A stretch of DNA of 64,000 bases, from the NCBI GenBank assembly GCA_038150265.1, contig JAYOTF010000014.1, forward strand, positions 1-64,000, read 5' to 3'. The stretch's first letter is position 1; every line of letters starts with the position of its first letter. The DNA comes from Deltaproteobacteria bacterium. GTDB taxonomy: Bacteria > SAR324 > NAC60-12. Below are positions 33,001 to 39,000 of this stretch, piece after piece. The position numbers were made by a program.

Positions 33001-36000
33001 GCTGAAGAATCCCTGGGCCTTGTAGCCCTGGAGGGGAACGGTGCCACTGTCGAGCAATCCCACCACCCGGCGCTTGGGGAGCCCATTGGCTTGAAAGACA
33101 ACCTCGTCCGATGCATCCAGCACCACTCCTTCGGGGTCCAGGACGTACACCAACTCCACCTGAGGCAGGGCACTCATTTCCTCTAGTGTGATATTCAGCA
33201 GCGCCCAGTTCCGAGACAGCACCGAATCCGTACAGTCTCGCACAAAGGTCATCACCAGCCACTGGTTGAGCTCCAGCTGCTGTTGCTGCTGAGACTGGGT
33301 GGCATACCAGATCTGGTAGGCAAACATCAGGGATGCCGTCAGGAGGAGCAACCCTCCAAACCAAAGAAACAGCTGAGATTGAATCCGCAGGCGCTTCATG
33401 TTTCCTTCACTGCACCTGGATGCTCTCTAGGTGAAAGAAGGCCTCCAGTTTATTGGGAAACAGCAAGGACTCGTTGCTTCCGGTTTGTGCCGGTAGCACA
33501 ATGAATCCGCCCCCAAAGGTCTCGGGAATGGAGTTCCCTTCCAGGGAGTAGGCCACCAGCAGCTGGTCCCGGTCGCTTTCCGCAGGAATGACCATTTCAA
33601 GCCCCAGGGAGGAGCGGAGCCTCAGCGGACGCCCCTGTGCGGTCTCGGGCAGCAGCTGACTCAGAGGCACCACGCCAATCTCCGTGTTCTCATTCGGCAC
33701 CATCACCCCCTTGCGGACTCCACGCGGAATCGGAAGCACCCGGTTCAGGGTTGACCGAGAGGCCCGGAGCATCTGCTCACGCGACCACGCCTGGGTGGCG
33801 TCTCCCTGCTGCACCTCCACCGACGACACCAGGTCGATGTGCCCAAAGAGGAGCATCTTGACGTACCAGGTGTAAAGCCCCACGTCTCGTTCGCTCGTGC
33901 TCATGACCTTCACCGGTCCACCGCGACGTGGAGAGATGGGTTCTCCGTTTTGCTCAAAGGCCAGGAGGGCACCCGCCCGGACCAGGTCGGTAAAGGGTTC
34001 ATGCGTGCTGTAGCCATCATTGGCCAGCATCGTCAGGTCTCCCTCAAACGGCTGCTCCAGCTGGAGCACCTGGGGCAGGTCCTCAAACGGCATCCCGCTG
34101 AACTGCTGGGGGCCATCCTTGGAAAAGATGGGGTCTGTGACTTCAATGGTCTTGAGGTAGGGGCGCAGGTCTTCTTCGGTGACCACCTTCTCACGAATCT
34201 GCAAGTTGGCGTCACGGATGAACAGGTGCAGCTCAAAAGGTACGGCCTGGACCGCAGAGCTGGTGATCAGCAGGAGCAGCAGCGCTCCAGGGAGCCTCTT
34301 CAAGGGGATTAGCCACTGCTGAAAAAAATGAGTCATTCTTGGGTTACGTTTCAAGGGTTAACGACGGGAAAGGTAATCTGAACCAGGGCTCCGTGCCCTT
34401 CCCGGCTCCGGAGGTGAAAGCGGCCATTCTGGTCCGCAATGATGCTTCGGCAAATCGAAAGCCCCAGGCCGGTCCCCTTGCCGGCCTCCTTGGTGGTAAA
34501 GAAGGGGTCTTCAATCCGCTGAAGGAGCTTTTTCGGAATTCCGGGGCCGGTGTCTTCCACCTCCATGCGGACCTCGTCGTCTTGACGAACCACCCGAAGG
34601 ACCAGTTGCTTGGCGCCACCGAAGTGCTGGAAGGCGTCTCGCGCGTTGCTGACCACCTCCACCAGAACGTGCTGCACCTGTCCGGGAATGCACCTGATGG
34701 AGCAGGGCTCCTCGGTGTACTCCTCCAGCAGCTCAATGCCCCGTCCCACAAACTGCTGCCGGTGCAGATCCGCAGTGGCCCGAACCAGGTTCCGGGGGTC
34801 TTCTTCCACAAAATCGGTCTGATTCGACACCTGAGCAAAGTGCCGGAGTTGCTGAATGACCACGGCAATCCGGTCCACATGCTCATCAATGCGCATCAGG
34901 GAGCCCTTGACCTTCTCCGGACGCTTTTCCAGCTGGCTGATGGCGCCACTGACCGAGAGTTTGATGATGCCCAGGGGGTTGTTGATCTCATGAGCCAACC
35001 CGGTGGCAATGCTTCCCAGAGAAGACAGCTTGGTGTTCTGAACCAGCTGACGCTGCAGGGCCACCGAATCGCGCTGGTGGCGCACCAGGCGGGCGTGGTT
35101 TTCCAACCGTGCCAGCATCTCCTCCCGTGAGAAGGGCTTGACGAGGTAGTCGTTGGCTCCGGCCTTGAGGGACTCAATGACCACCGAATACTCGCCAGCC
35201 GCCGTGAGGATGATCACCGGCAGCTCCGGACGGTTCAGAGGCCCCCGGATGGTCCGGCACAGCTCAATGCCATCCATTTTCGGCATCACAAAGTCCGTCA
35301 CCACCAGGTCCACGGGGTACTTTTCCAGCAGCTCCACCGCCTCTTCGCCATTGGACGCATCCAGCACATGAGCGCCTCGTTTGCGGAGGATCCGGGCCAG
35401 GATCGTCCGGATGGAGCGGGAGTCGTCGACCACCAGGATGTTGATGTCTTCCAGGGAGTGCTCATCGGCCAGCAGCTCCTCCAGGTACTCCCGGAGGCTT
35501 CCGGGCTCAAAGGGCTTCTTGATGAACTCCACCGCCCCGGCATGAAAGGCTCGGGCATTCAGGTTGGGCTCCTCCTTGCTGGAAATCACAATGATCGGAA
35601 TGTGCGAACACTGCGGGTAGTAGCGGATGCGCTGAATGGTGGTAATGCCATCAATTTCCGGCATTTCCACATCCATCGTGATCGCGTCCGGCTCCAGCTC
35701 AATGGCCATGCTCATGGCCTCTCTGCCACTCTCCGCCTCATAAATCTGAGCGTTGTGCAGGCTGGAGAGTTCCTCCCGGATGAGCTTTCGGGAGCTGGCG
35801 CTGTCATCGACCACCAGGATTTTCAGAGGGACCGGGTTGGTGTTCATTCTCCTCACACAAGAAAAGGCATTACGTCGTCACGCCTCGCATTCGCTTCAAT
35901 CCCAAAGCGTCTGCTTGGCAAAAAAATCAAGAATCTGGTTGAGCAGCACCTGCTCCTCAGGCGCCACATAAAGGAACTCGATGCCAAACTCTCCGCGCCC

Positions 36001-39000
36001 CTCCTGAGACCGGTTCCAGATGGTGGTCCCGGTGACTTCCAGGGGGGCCAGGTTCGGAATCACGGGACGGCCCTGCTCCCAAAAGATGGTCATGCGGACC
36101 GTCACGCCCACCGGAAGCGCGTGGTCGGACTTGACCCGGGCGCCGGAGCGCGACAGGTCCAGCAGCTGCCCCTCCCAGGCTTCCGCCTGCTTGAGGGTGC
36201 TCCGACGCTCTTCATACTGCACCGGCACCTGCACGTTGTAGCGCTCGGCGCGGCTCGACCGGGCGTTGAAGAAGCGCTCCTCCGCCTCGCAGAGGACCTC
36301 CTCCGAGTGCGCGCCTTCCGGAGGGTGTTCCCGAAAGTAGTTGCACCGCTTGATGTAATTGATGGTGACCGGGTCCTCCGGAAACTGCTCCAGGCACTCC
36401 CGGAAGGGCAACAGCGCCTCCTCAAAGAGCCAGGCCTTGTACAGGGCCATCCCCTGAAAGAGCAGCATCTGCGTGGACCGCTTCACCTCCTGCAAGGCAG
36501 GGGAGTCGGTCGCAAACACCTCATACACGTTCACCAGCCGTTGCCGTCCCCGGACCCGGAGGGTGTCCACCTCGCGGACGGCCTTCAGCTGCGACCGGAG
36601 GGCCGCATGCGTGTGGTGCGAAATGAGGATCCGCGAGCCAAACGACTTGGTCAGGGTCTCCAGGCGGGCGGCCAGGTTGACGGCATCGCCAACCACGGAC
36701 AGGTGCTTGCCCCGCAGGCCTCCCACCCAGCGGTGTCCCACAATGACGGGTCCGGTGTTGATGCCAATCCCGGCCCGGAACTGCCGAGCCCGAGGACGGG
36801 CATTGAAGGCGTCAAGCCGCTGCTGCATCGCCACTGCGGCCTCCACGGCCCGGTCAGCACTGGAACGCCCCTCAAAGAGCGCCATCAGGGCATCGCCCAT
36901 GAACTTGTCCACCACGCCCCCATGCTGCTCCACCTCCAGCACCAGCGCATCAAAGATGGCACTGAGCATCCGAAACCCCGTCTTCGGCGTTGTGGACTCC
37001 ACATGGGTCGTGTACCCCCGGATGTCCAGAAACAGGATGGAGAGGGTCATTTCCCTCAGAGGAGAGACCTCGTCACTTAACGCCTCATGGCTCGCAATCC
37101 AATGAAGTCCTCGTTTTCTAGAAGAATTCGACATCATCGAGTAAATCGTCCTCGGTCGCCTCCACCGGCGCGGCGTCTGCTTGCTTCTCTGCAGGGTCCC
37201 ACCCCTCGAAGAGGCGGTTCAGGACCTCCCGGAAGGGCTCTTGCAGACAGGAGTGGTGAATCGTCCGCTCCACGTCCCGCGAGTAGAGGCGTTCCAGTTC
37301 AGAAAGGTCGAGGGGCTCGGAAGCCTCGGGCTCGCCCGCAAGCGTCTGGTCCAGTTCGGTGTGGAGAAGTTCAATGAGCTGATACGTCAGGCGGACGCGA
37401 AGCTCCACCTGCTCCCCAAAAGAAAGATTTTCCAACAAGGTGAGGATTCCACCAGCTAATTTCCATGTTTCCCGCGAAACCGCTCCGGTCCGGGCCAGCA
37501 TCGCCACACTGGCTTCCCGGAAGCCCTGCAGGCGTTCATTGAGGGACACGCGGGTCCGGCCCACCGACTCCAGCTGCTGGTCGAGGGACTGCTGCAGCGC
37601 CTCCTGGAACCCCGAGATCAGCTCCAGCCCCTCCTGAAGGGTGGAGACTTCCCGTGAGAGCAGGTCCTGTGCTTCTTCCGAGCGGTGAATGACTTCGTGG
37701 CTGAGCTTCTCCAGACGGGCCGAGTGCTCTCCGGCGTCATTCGGAAGCAGCATCGCGTTCACCGACATGCGGCGCAAATCGTTGCCAATGTCTTCAATGG
37801 ATTCCAGGTGCTCTCGGGTCAGCCGCAGCCGGGCATTGACCTCTTCCATGGCACCCAGCACCCGGCGGGTGACGCCCTCGCTGCGCCGGAGGGTCTGCAG
37901 AAGCGCCTGCAGCGCCAGGTCCAGCTGCCGCACTCCCGCACTGAGGGGGCCCTCGAGTCCCAGGATCTCTCCCACGCGGGACACCTGATTCTGAGCCCGG
38001 GCAGAGATGTCCCGGAACCGGGCGTCCACCTGCTGCTCAATTTCATCCGTCTTGTGGAGGACATAGGCCAGCTGCCCGAGCTGGATCTCCAGGCACTGCC
38101 GGGCCCAGCGTCGGGAGGCCACCGAGCCCTCCTCCAGCCGGGTTCCGGCAAGCACCAGCGCCTCCGAGACGTGCTCCATCTGCTGCCGGGTGATGTCATG
38201 GAACTGCACCGCCATGACGACCTGATTGAGGTACGGGACAATTTCTTCCGAGTCCTTGCGGATCCAGCTGCAGGAGCTGACGACCTTGCGCATCAGGCCC
38301 CGCATCTCCCGGACCCCGTCTTCCACCTGTCGCTGCAGCGCCTCTGCCTCGAGCGGCATCAGCTCGCTCAGGCGGACCTGTCGCATGACGGTAAAGAACT
38401 CCTCCTGGGCCTGCTCCGCGCTCCAGGTCATGGAAAGCCGGGTGTCGGCCATGTGTCCGGCCAGGGTGGTGATGCCCTCGGAGAGCTGCACAAACGCCCG
38501 GGGGTGCGAGTGCTGCTGCCCCTGAAGGTTCATGAGCACCCCAATGATGCGGACCGCATGGGCCAGGCGCATGAGGAAGCCGCCCACCTGCTCCAGGGAC
38601 TGGGTCCGGCTGGTGAGGTCGTGCAGGCTGGGAAGCGTCCCGGTGAGGAGCGTGGTGCTGTCTCCGACCTCACCGCCTCCCTCCCGGAAGAGCGTTTCCA
38701 CGTCGTCCAGCCGCCAGCCTTCGCCCGACTGAATCCGGGCCTCCACCTCACCGACTTCGGCAGAGTTGTTCTTGAACTGCGTGGAGACGCCATAGATCTG
38801 GTCACCGAGCAAGAGGAAGTCCTGCTCGGTTTCGCTGGAGATGCTCATCAGCCCCTCAGCCGCCTGGCGGAGGAGGGCTGTGCCTGCAGTTAAATCGAAG
38901 GAGGCGGTCATGGTCGGCTCAATCCCACAAATCGACGTCCACCGGTCGTTGCGGACGATGCTGTTGTTCCCGTTCACGCTGAACCGCCCGGATGAAGCTC

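Follow-up and report, generated by a model that had tools for sequence, protein, structure and literature searches.

Three proteins encoded in a single SAR324 genome probably let a c-di-GMP signal tune cAMP synthesis directly. Each joins a class III nucleotidyl cyclase to a C-terminal PilZ domain. Computation shows how the domains are arranged, which residues are conserved, what fold they adopt, and a predicted dimer of the cyclase domains, whereas ATP as the substrate, c-di-GMP binding, and allosteric coupling are inferred. Direct modulation of cAMP synthesis by c-di-GMP, through soluble, homodimeric class IIIb-like cyclases with a PilZ tail, is the reading that we hold to be likely, if by no means secure; as a prediction, it agrees with everything that was computed. 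Two of the genes, g01474 and g01467, are located in the window (the stretch of 64,000 nucleotides that we analyzed), and the third, g02403, is on another contig (Table 1).

Domain composition and phyletic distribution

The earlier note had reported three cyclases with a C-terminal PilZ domain in this genome, and both open reading frames and Pfam matches bear this out. A profile search of the genome returned 8 cyclase-domain and 6 PilZ matches, and the two occur together in these three soluble proteins of 413 to 597 aa. All matches exceed the curated Pfam cut-offs for Guanylate_cyc (PF00211, 21.9 bits) and PilZ (PF07238, 22.5 bits): 1.6e-18 (67.4 bits) and 2.2e-11 (44.4 bits) in g01474, 5.9e-20 (72.1 bits) and 4.3e-10 (40.3 bits) in g01467, and 7.8e-21 (74.9 bits) and 1.4e-10 (41.9 bits) in g02403. 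In g01467, Response_reg (4.2e-26) and TPR_2 (1.8e-07) were also detected, and the N terminus of g02403 is a degenerate receiver-like domain. TPR repeats had been noted for g01467 only; however, a helical adaptor is present in all three proteins. The start of g01474, previously placed at 37050, is moved to 37137 or 37134 (413 or 412 aa), because the orthologues P0002 (88% identity) and P0003 (65%; alignment A1) share conserved sequence over the 29 residues that precede the former start. The start overlaps the stop of the upstream gene.

Table 1. Coordinates of the cyclase-PilZ genes, their domains, and neighboring genes
Feature	Position	Strand	Description
PAS histidine kinase	24995-27766	+	stop overlaps g01467 start by 4 nt
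g01467	27763-29484	+	573 aa; receiver, signaling helix, class III cyclase, TPR adaptor, PilZ
g01467 REC	27781-28113	+	
g01467 cyclase domain	28306-28824	+	
g01467 TPR motif	28897-28989	+	
g01467 PilZ	29098-29427	+	
Receiver-HATPase protein	29477-30613	+	start overlaps g01467 end by 8 nt
Receiver protein	30643-31413		after receiver-HATPase gene
REC-REC-HisKA-HATPase hybrid kinase	34351-35856	-	40 nt downstream of g01474
g01474	35896-37137	-	413 aa, stop codon included in span; receiver-less class III cyclase, helical adaptor, PilZ
g01474 PilZ	35929-36252	-	Pfam residues 296-403; motif D327-L-S-R-S-G332
g01474 Arg-rich loop	36241-36261	-	R293/R296/R299
g01474 adaptor	36265-36501	-	residues 213-291; four-helix, TPR-like
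g01474 cyclase catalytic domain	36535-37047	-	residues 31-201; D38, K78, D82, S147, N154, R158
Coiled-coil protein, 652 aa	37118-39076	-	directly upstream of g01474, 20-nt overlap
CheD	38919-39692	-	upstream of g01474, co-directional
CheB	39559-40896	-	upstream of g01474, co-directional
REC-REC-HATPase	40655-42121	-	upstream of g01474, co-directional
CheR	42118-42957	-	upstream of g01474, co-directional
CheW	45616-46128	-	strand shared with g01474
4HB chemoreceptor	46200-48383	-	strand shared with g01474
CheA	48655-50823	-	strand shared with g01474
g02403	G000:C33:10969-12762 (= L009:856-2649)		class III cyclase, helical TPR-like adaptor, PilZ

The cyclase domains of the 59 fusions that make up the family group together on a tree, and a single origin is not rejected. 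Family members carry receiver, PAS, GAF, NIT, or cNMP-binding modules in front and PilZ at the back, in some cases followed by STAS or a hybrid kinase. Both domains were found in 34 of the 44 best matches scanned, out of 1.84 billion representatives. The architecture had been called rare outside this lineage. Its rarity stands, as 9 of the 88 genomes from the window's phylum have the fusion, all within one family, and PilZ is present on 6 of the 120 nearest cyclases; the part of the claim that concerns other lineages is settled neither way. In the ESM Atlas, a 76-member cluster with both domains, mostly labeled Pseudomonadota, is already auto-named cyclase/PilZ, and full-text literature searches found no paper on the cyclase-PilZ fusion. 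The host of the three proteins studied here is an uncultured bacterium.

Catalytic residues and predicted substrate

The best sequence matches are the soluble class IIIb cyclases Spirulina CyaC (1WC0), the photoactivated OaPAC (4YUS/4YUT) and bPAC (5M27), and CyaB of P. aeruginosa (3R5G), with E values from 2.7e-16 to 6.7e-08, and the same four top the Foldseek results for g01474 (E of about 1e-13; TM to target 0.78-0.82 for those targets that are single-domain chains). They share with g01474 the six catalytic positions, with Lys plus Thr/Ser; a head-to-tail dimer is predicted for g01474. In contrast, these chains have neither a PilZ domain nor a TPR-like adaptor: the matches span about 195 of 413 residues, and TM to query is 0.42. 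The regulators of CyaC, OaPAC, bPAC, and CyaB (BLUF, bicarbonate, membrane MASE2 region) are N-terminal.

The metal-binding Asp pair and the transition-state Asn/Arg, which the earlier note had listed as kept, are indeed D38, D82, N154, and R158 in g01474, and g01467 and g02403 have them in the corresponding columns; the roles of these columns agree with the alignment to solved cyclases. The Lys/Asp base pair claimed alongside them, however, does not hold: the alignment gives Lys/Ser in g01474 and Lys/Thr in g01467 and g02403. The second base-contact site lies three positions before the Gly of G-D-x-V/I-N in all three cyclases; g01474 has Ser147 there, and g01467 and g02403 have Thr. The Asp of "GD," which had been counted instead, is a different position. 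In the alignment, the same column holds Thr in the photoactivated cyclase OaPAC and Gly in the guanylate cyclase Cya2, which has Glu at the first base-contact column, where our three proteins all have Lys. A Lys/Thr base-contact pair is characteristic of class IIIb adenylate cyclases. Excerpts of PMC4215837 give Lys/Asp for adenylate cyclases and Glu with Cys, Ser, Thr, His, Ala, or Gly for guanylate cyclases. At the level of sequence, the Lys/Thr(Ser) pair indicates ATP as the substrate, in the manner of class IIIb.

All six catalytic residues are intact in the three proteins, which should make cAMP. Across the 59 members, aligned to one model, the metal-binding Asp residues are conserved in 56 and 55, the Lys in 54, and the Asn and the Arg in 58 each; the second base-contact column is Thr in 52 and Ser in 7. 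The complete catalytic set is present in 50 members, and 9 have lost a catalytic residue with their PilZ motifs intact. These nine, together with the small number of cAMP readers in the genome (two cNMP_binding matches), would fit proteins that act mainly as c-di-GMP receptors or sinks, their cyclase domains being inactive or making another nucleotide in vivo. We consider this very improbable for the proteins described here, given that each has the full catalytic set with Lys at the adenine site and that active adenylate cyclases are the top matches both by sequence and by fold.

The homodimer prediction for g01474 scored 0.52, compared with 0.00 for the best of three controls, although this may reflect likeness to solved cyclase dimers; among 30 solved pairs 20 attained that mark, as did 1 among 23 single chains. 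The runs had at least 64% of contacts in common, and partner pLDDT was at least 80. The interface is confined to residues 12-153, K78 and S147 being part of it. Because the confident interface omits the adaptor and PilZ, no coupling route is seen in it.

PilZ domain and proposed coupling to the cyclase

The AlphaFold2 model of g01474 (pLDDT 87.9, pTM 0.86) and the model of g01467 (pLDDT 86.2, pTM 0.65) both place six strands (within residues 300-390 and at 457-542, respectively) before a helix (393-412 and 545-561), in agreement with the canonical PilZ described in a preprint (10.1101/814665) as a barrel of six strands with a single long helix after it. The g01474 adaptor consists of helices 213-234, 238-251, 256-270, and 279-291, and in both models the Arg loop lies exactly where the last of the four adaptor helices meets the first PilZ strand. 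The adaptor-tail profile matches consensus TPR proteins. The same tail also occurs on cyclases without PilZ, and thus the adaptor has its own function.

The claim that the c-di-GMP motifs are kept is correct for g01467 and g02403, whose RxxxR loops read R-T-A-P-R (within R-R-R-T-A-P-R) and R-Q-N-A-R. It fails for RxxxR in g01474 (R-S-S-R-A-E-R), where an imperfect first motif had rightly been suspected: R293, R296, and R299 are present, with Ser in place of the first Arg. The second motif, [D/N]hSxxG, is found in all three as D-L-S-R-S-G (g01474), D-L-S-R-Y-G (g01467), and D-L-S-L-S-G (g02403). In the family, the last Arg of RxxxR is invariant (59/59) and the first is present in 48/59; the second motif has D/N in 57/59, Ser in 56/59, Gly in 59/59, and I, L, V, or M at the h position in 57/59. 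Strict motifs are present in 44/59 and 15/59 deviate, and no member has lost both the catalytic set and the PilZ motifs. According to 10.1101/814665, PilZ domains without the motifs do not bind c-di-GMP, which counts against binding by g01474 and its four closest relatives, where the first Arg is missing.

In the mechanism that we propose, the adaptor of four TPR-like helices joins the catalytic domain to the canonical C-terminal PilZ. Binding of c-di-GMP at the Arg-rich loop would hold the PilZ barrel in a fixed position relative to adaptor and cyclase; the catalytic dimer would thereby change its geometry, and the rate of cAMP synthesis would change with it, up or down. The cellulose synthase BcsA and alginate Alg44, enzymes or partners of enzymes, likewise join a canonical PilZ to an output module on which c-di-GMP acts post-translationally, whereas the output here would be a second messenger made by a nucleotide cyclase in place of a polysaccharide. 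BcsA and Alg44 are listed as fusion products in 10.1101/814665, the introduction of which names REC, GGDEF, EAL, HD-GYP, MCPsignal, and CheC as PilZ partners; the word "cyclase" has no occurrence in its text.

A PilZ domain could instead serve for docking or localization (to a chemosensory array, a kinase, or a motor), with or without c-di-GMP and without allosteric control of catalysis. PilZ domains that act via protein contacts are known (10.1101/814665), g01474 belongs to a che-type cluster and is without the first Arg, and PilZ is outside the predicted dimer interface. Pure docking nevertheless seems unlikely, because it would not be expected to preserve both c-di-GMP motifs in 44/59 members with the last Arg and the Gly invariant; moreover, allostery and docking can coexist.

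Genomic context and possible two-messenger signaling

A che-type gene cluster ends with g01474. For the 652-aa coiled-coil protein encoded next to it, no Pfam family was detected at 1e-4, and its match to CheZ is weak (E=0.0097; 16.2 bits, under the 30.7 cut-off); it has an Atlas look-alike score of 0.96 to clusters with MCPsignal in 27-38% of members and looks like a chemoreceptor. This gene adjoins the cyclase-PilZ orthologue in the related genome G002 too. P. aeruginosa has chemosensory pathways with non-motility outputs: Wsp acts through the diguanylate cyclase WspR, and Pil-Chp acts on cAMP via CyaB. Much like an output enzyme of such a pathway, g01474 follows CheA, MCP, CheW, CheR, CheB, and CheD on one strand, but it has no receiver domain; thus, no connection to the kinase is apparent. 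Moreover, receiver-less copies in G010 are outside che clusters.

This context bears on a narrower alternative, in which the PilZ of g01474 alone has lost c-di-GMP binding and its cyclase serves as output for the chemosensory-type pathway next to it, g01467 and g02403 still being responsive. We give it serious weight, short of preferring it. On the one hand, the first Arg is Ser or Lys in g01474, P0002, L034, P0003, and P0019, the gene overlaps the chemoreceptor-like gene behind the chemotaxis genes, and within the genus both genes are found in the window's genome (G000) and G002 and neither in G001 with these queries. On the other hand, R293, R296, R299, and the full D-h-S-x-x-G motif are kept down to the 65%-identical P0003. 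R296 is Arg in 43/59 members, and so g01474 may yet bind the ligand through an Arg pair in a shifted position.

Under direct control by c-di-GMP, a second input would enter through the N-terminal module: in g01467 a phosphorylatable receiver, its gene being between two kinase genes, and in g02403, whose gene comes after a stand-alone PilZ gene, the degenerate receiver-like domain. There is no such module in g01474, the last gene of the che-type cluster. Each protein would therefore combine c-di-GMP with another signal.

The genome can both produce and break down c-di-GMP, with one GGDEF protein that has an intact GGEEF and one GAF-HD-GYP protein. The former, the only intact-GGEEF protein of the genome, has an N-terminal cyclic-nucleotide-binding domain and is conserved full-length in 21 of 24 other family genomes searched; at the phosphate-binding position of this domain, the window's genus has His, whereas the orthologues L066, L071, and L072 have Arg. 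With this substitution as a caveat, a two-messenger feedback is conceivable, though on balance doubtful: cAMP would set c-di-GMP synthesis through the cNMP-GGDEF protein and c-di-GMP would set cAMP synthesis through PilZ, with the g01474 arm wired to a chemosensory array and the g01467 arm to a phosphorelay, as a toggle or oscillator. Bdellovibrio Bd1971 is reportedly a cAMP-sensing phosphodiesterase. Leptospira Lcd1 appears as a cAMP-activated diguanylate cyclase in a reference-list entry of PMC12943098. Like the cyclase-PilZ proteins, these couple the cAMP and c-di-GMP systems post-translationally in one protein, but in the opposite direction, as cAMP controls c-di-GMP turnover there.

Excerpts of a 2024 review (PMC11139211) describe cross-regulation of the cAMP and c-di-GMP systems as "extremely limited," give cases that are transcriptional, and state that how c-di-GMP inhibits cAMP-Vfr signaling in P. 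aeruginosa still calls for experiments. That a c-di-GMP receptor and an adenylate cyclase occur naturally fused hints, in the Rosetta-stone sense, that cyclases can be direct targets of PilZ proteins, and such simple soluble proteins allow in vitro testing of this action. The family would consist of modular coincidence detectors, which could serve as parts for synthetic signaling circuits.

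Domain architecture of the cyclase-PilZ proteins

A whole-genome scan (3.39 Mb in 87 contigs, completeness 97.78%) located eight cyclase and six PilZ domains, with both kinds together in three proteins: g01474 and g01467 in the window and their paralogue g02403 on contig C33. The earlier note had named the same three proteins, and the open frames, the Pfam domains and the scan bear it out. Both window proteins contain a class III cyclase catalytic domain and a PilZ domain that score well over the curated Pfam cut-offs; g01467 additionally has a receiver domain and one TPR motif, and the same pair of domains is present in g02403. 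The five remaining cyclases are combined with a 2Fe-2S ferredoxin domain, HAMP-GAF, CHASE2, a receiver, or a membrane region only. The three remaining PilZ proteins are a PilZ-receiver protein, a YcgR-like protein and a stand-alone PilZ protein, the last of which is encoded next to g02403 and has the canonical motifs R-Y-F-R-R and N-L-S-L-K-G.

The start of g01474 had been placed at position 37050, which we reject: in our alignment A1, conservation in the orthologues P0002 (88% identity) and P0003 (65%) extends over the 29 residues preceding the Met chosen there, and the start is therefore either 37137 or 37134. A GAGGA sequence lies about 11 nt upstream of this start, which itself overlaps the upstream gene's stop codon. 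The N-terminal domain of g02403 was also considered as a plain receiver, and this assignment was rejected (E=0.37 against the g01467 receiver in BLASTP; E=0.1 for Response_reg in Pfam). This domain is linked to receivers solely through the database protein P0011 (E=9e-06), which itself matches the receiver family with a score under the cut-off; a receiver-like nature is thus weakly supported.

Between the cyclase and PilZ domains, all three proteins have a region of about 80 residues that forms four helices in the models and holds one TPR-like motif. The TPR adaptor described previously for g01467 is therefore present there, but its restriction to that protein does not hold. The same tail ends several PilZ-less cyclases in this genome and in its relatives, which argues that PilZ was joined behind a pre-existing cyclase-adaptor unit. 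A profile of the tail plus PilZ matched TPR proteins alone among PDB sequences, with no PilZ chain at E<=1.

In the AlphaFold2 model of g01474 (54 sequences, pLDDT 87.9, pTM 0.86), residues 28-207 adopt the cyclase fold; four helices (213-291) and then six strands (300-390) follow, and residues 393-412 form a last helix. Its PilZ part has the canonical layout given in the PilZ preprint 10.1101/814665. In the model of g01467 (pLDDT 86.2, pTM 0.65), a receiver and a 47-residue helix stand in front. Foldseek matches to OaPAC, bPAC, CyaC, CyaB and Cya2 were confined to the cyclase part; the cyclase-adaptor-PilZ arrangement as a whole was found in no solved chain. Dimer prediction used two copies of g01474 and two c-di-GMP molecules, with the ligand outside the score. 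The homodimer scored 0.52, compared with 0.00 for the best of 3 controls; of solved pairs, 20 of 30 attain this mark, and of single chains, 1 of 23. Contacts agreed between runs to at least 64%, and partner pLDDT was 80 or higher. The interface predicted with confidence is symmetric, lies within residues 12-153, Lys78 and Ser147 included, and sets helix 51-70 of one copy against hairpin 132-147 of the other; PilZ is not part of it. The prediction supports a g01474 homodimer, although dimers of class III cyclases have already been solved, so the pass may reflect solved dimers already known to the predictor and speaks for likeness, not for binding.

Coordinates of the cyclase-PilZ genes and of other features (window positions unless a contig is named; G000 is the genome of the window, and L-numbers are loci read)
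Feature	Location	Strand	Remarks
g01474, cyclase-adaptor-PilZ, 413 aa	35896-37137	-	
g01467, receiver-cyclase-adaptor-PilZ, 573 aa	27763-29484	+	
g02403, third paralogue	G000:C33:10969-12762		
Stand-alone PilZ protein, 144 aa	G000:C33:10495-10929 (L006)	+	ends 39 nt before g02403 start
Coiled-coil protein, 652 aa	37118-39076	-	overlaps g01474 start; no Pfam family above cut-off
Spermine/spermidine synthase-domain protein, 845 aa	42985-45522	-	between CheW and CheR, in che-type cluster
STAS protein	53588-53941	-	in group 53588-58607
Second CheA-like kinase (Hpt-HATPase-CheW)	53955-56330	-	in group 53588-58607
Receiver-HATPase_c_2 protein	56527-57408	-	in group 53588-58607
SpoIIE phosphatase	57405-58607	-	in group 53588-58607
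Four-tandem-GGDEF protein with Y_Y_Y sensor region, 1113 aa	G000:C4:75362-78703 (L075)	-	
cNMP-binding-GGDEF protein	G000:C6:29941-31362 (L063:1498-2919)	-	sole intact GGEEF of genome; cNMP domain N-terminal
Metallo-beta-lactamase-fold + cNMP-binding protein, 731 aa	G000:C12:52724-54919 (L073)	-	genome's only other cNMP-binding domain

Conservation of catalytic and PilZ-motif residues

The earlier note had assigned a Lys/Asp base-contact pair to these cyclases, which we reject on the alignment to solved cyclases. Lys78 of g01474 aligns with the Glu of the guanylate cyclase Cya2; the second site is Ser147, aligned with Gly of Cya2 and with Thr of the photoactivated adenylate cyclase OaPAC, and this column is Thr in g01467 and g02403. 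The Asp counted previously belongs to the G-D motif and sits four residues beyond this column; we take the Ser147/Thr column, and not this Asp, to be the base contact. Lys combined with Thr is the hallmark of class IIIb adenylate cyclases, so that ATP stays the expected substrate, as predicted from the aligned residues. Cyclases with this Lys/Thr pair are often responsive to bicarbonate. PMC4215837 gives Lys and Asp for adenylate cyclases, and Glu and a small residue for guanylate cyclases.

A profile of the adaptor and PilZ regions of the three paralogues was searched against all 1.84 billion representative proteins and matched 3635 of them at E<=0.001, 223 at E<=1e-10 and 25 at E<=1e-30. We scanned 44 chosen proteins with Pfam: 42 from the best 150 of the 3635, each with a single-stretch match from the profile start (all but two over near-full profile length), and two multi-PilZ contrast proteins. 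Cyclase and PilZ domains occurred together in 34 of the 44. The N-terminal partner in the scanned proteins was mostly a receiver, otherwise receiver-PAS, GAF, NIT-PAS, a cNMP-binding domain, or none, and some members carry STAS or an entire hybrid histidine kinase C-terminal to PilZ. Rare layouts include cNMP-binding-cyclase-PilZ (P0147) and receiver-cyclase-PilZ-STAS (P0016 and P0026) and, among the nearest database cyclases, the receiver-cyclase-GGDEF fusions P0225 and P0241. In three metagenomic proteins of about 1050 aa (P0039, P0071 and P0047), one or more receivers, the cyclase and PilZ are followed by a HisKA-HATPase-receiver extension; a catalytic residue of the cyclase is lost and the PilZ motifs are intact, and these proteins are possibly c-di-GMP-controlled kinases. 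A word-indexed search with the C-terminal half of g01474 yielded just 3 proteins among 226 candidates, and the 10 family members looked up in protein clusters were all singletons.

We then considered 59 non-identical members, including copies from related genomes, aligned to one model that all of them matched from the cyclase through into PilZ. In the cyclase domain, the metal-binding Asp residues are kept in 56 and 55 members, Lys in 54, and Asn and Arg in 58 each; the second base-contact column is Thr in 52 and Ser in 7. In the PilZ domain, the last Arg of RxxxR is present in all 59 and the first in 48, and the second motif has D/N in 57, Ser in 56 and Gly in 59. All six catalytic residues are found in 50/59 and strict PilZ motifs in 44/59; both sets are kept in 35 members and both are lost in none. 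The nine catalytically degenerate members all retain the PilZ motifs. Such joint conservation is the pattern that selection on both functions would produce.

The first PilZ motif of g01474 had already been noted as imperfect, and this was borne out: the first Arg column of RxxxR is occupied by Ser, and in its four closest relatives by Ser, His or Lys. Arg293, Arg296 and Arg299, together with the entire second motif, are kept in P0003, and Arg296 is conserved in 43 of the 59 family members. On sequence grounds, the shifted Arg pair may still hold the ligand. We predict that g01467 and g02403 bind c-di-GMP with good probability, and that g01474 does so with a chance barely on the favorable side of even.

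Origin and distribution of the fusion

A FastTree tree was built from 178 cyclase domains. PilZ accompanies 60 of these; the other 118 were 114 of the nearest database cyclases and four paralogues from the same genome (the ferredoxin-cyclase on contig C2 was absent). On this tree the PilZ label required 5 changes versus 50.3 in shuffles, and none of 500 shuffles was as low. An IQ-TREE tree, from which five long-branch rows were removed, contained 57 domains with PilZ and 48 without (the first 45 of 113 remaining database cyclases and three own paralogues); constraining all PilZ-bearing domains to one clade was not rejected (p-AU 0.396). These results fit one or few fusion events followed by shuffling of N-terminal sensors; a single origin is not proven.

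At E<=1e-25, the adaptor-PilZ profile matched 9 of the 88 genomes available from the window's phylum, all of them in the taxonomic family of the window (8 of 44 other family members). They represent 7 of 43 genera; the six other families of the phylum, with 43 genomes, gave no match. Among 41 close relatives, the matches listed include 31 over nearly the full profile, spread over 9 genomes that hold between one and five copies; a further 135 matches were weaker. A search of genome contigs, too insensitive to serve as a survey, returned 6 loci, only one of which covered the whole query; another, in a SAR324 MAG, was a distant match to the tail only. This was the sole match with a named source, and the lineage is probably SAR324-like. 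PilZ was found on six of the 120 nearest cyclases listed, out of 505 at E<=1e-20.

Outside the lineage, the ESM Atlas has a cluster of 76 members (about 363 aa; score 0.86, which counts as a lead only) in which PF00211 occurs on 100% of the proteins and PF07238 on 95%; Pseudomonadota is the most frequent phylum label among the 20 members with a record. The cluster bears the automatic name 'Adenylate and Guanylate cyclase catalytic/PilZ domain-containing protein', and the architecture has therefore already been catalogued by automatic annotation. Full-text literature searching, with subscription journals, preprint supplements and Pfam architecture tables outside its scope, gave no description of a cyclase-PilZ protein. 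The word 'cyclase' is absent from the text of preprint 10.1101/814665, and the only cross-regulation between the two messengers named in the accessible part of review PMC11139211 is transcriptional.

Gene neighborhoods and the messenger network

The gene for a PAS histidine kinase ends 4 nt inside the start of g01467, and a receiver-HATPase gene begins 8 nt before its stop, followed by another receiver gene; g01467 is translationally coupled on both sides. The acidic pocket, Thr and Lys typical of receivers are present in that of g01467. The long minus-strand run ending in g01474 encodes, in order, CheA, a 4HB chemoreceptor, CheW, the spermine-synthase-like protein, CheR, a double-receiver HATPase, CheB, CheD and the 652-aa coiled-coil protein; a double-receiver histidine kinase and a further kinase lie beyond. 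The 652-aa protein has a sub-threshold CheZ match (E=0.0097) and contains the stretch F-H-D-I-T-R-Q-Q, which we take to have the Asp/Gln spacing of the CheZ active site; in a language-model search, it resembles a chemoreceptor (0.96 to clusters with MCPsignal on 27-38%). In one genome of the same genus (G002), the gene for this protein adjoins the cyclase-PilZ orthologue; in another (G001), neither this gene nor a match to the adaptor-PilZ query was found. The neighborhood suggests a possible role for g01474 as output or modulator in the adjoining chemosensory pathway. A location in che clusters is not general for receiver-less cyclase-PilZ genes: the two copies examined in genome G010 lie outside. 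In a scan of 31000-46500, promoter-like sites numbered 0 against 2.0 expected and terminator-like sites 7 against 10.4 expected, which does not inform on operon borders. Elsewhere in the window, the group around the second CheA-like kinase looks like a partner-switching module joined to a chemosensory kinase.

No EAL domain was found in the genome, which has one GAF-HD-GYP protein and two GGDEF proteins. The four-GGDEF protein is degenerate, with the signature G-E-K in place of GG(D/E)EF, and is possibly a receptor or scaffold, not an enzyme. Of the 24 other genomes searched in the window's family, 21 conserve the cNMP-GGDEF protein over its full or nearly full length. In the sister family, its GGDEF half was matched in all 16 genomes searched, inside longer frames of about 700-920 aa, most of which also contain a separate match to the cNMP part. 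The 731-aa protein, whose layout seems to us to recall the cyclic-nucleotide-stimulated phosphodiesterases of Dictyostelium, is a candidate cyclic-nucleotide (cAMP) phosphodiesterase. The cNMP-GGDEF and cyclase-PilZ proteins could form a reciprocal loop, a proposal that we qualify because members of the window's genus have His in the cNMP pocket at the position of the presumably phosphate-binding Arg; the orthologues at L066, L071 and L072 have Arg there.

In the mechanism that we propose, the Arg loop (293-299 in g01474) would act as a hinge that joins the adaptor to the PilZ barrel. In YcgR, PlzD and BcsA, c-di-GMP at such a linker re-orients the domains. A similar re-orientation driven by c-di-GMP would be relayed via the adaptor to the catalytic dimer, which it might activate or inhibit. 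As a variant of class IIIb adenylate cyclases and of PilZ-fused enzymes, both well known, the cyclase-PilZ proteins are rare and diversified, and c-di-GMP control of cAMP synthesis by them is a sound, testable prediction.
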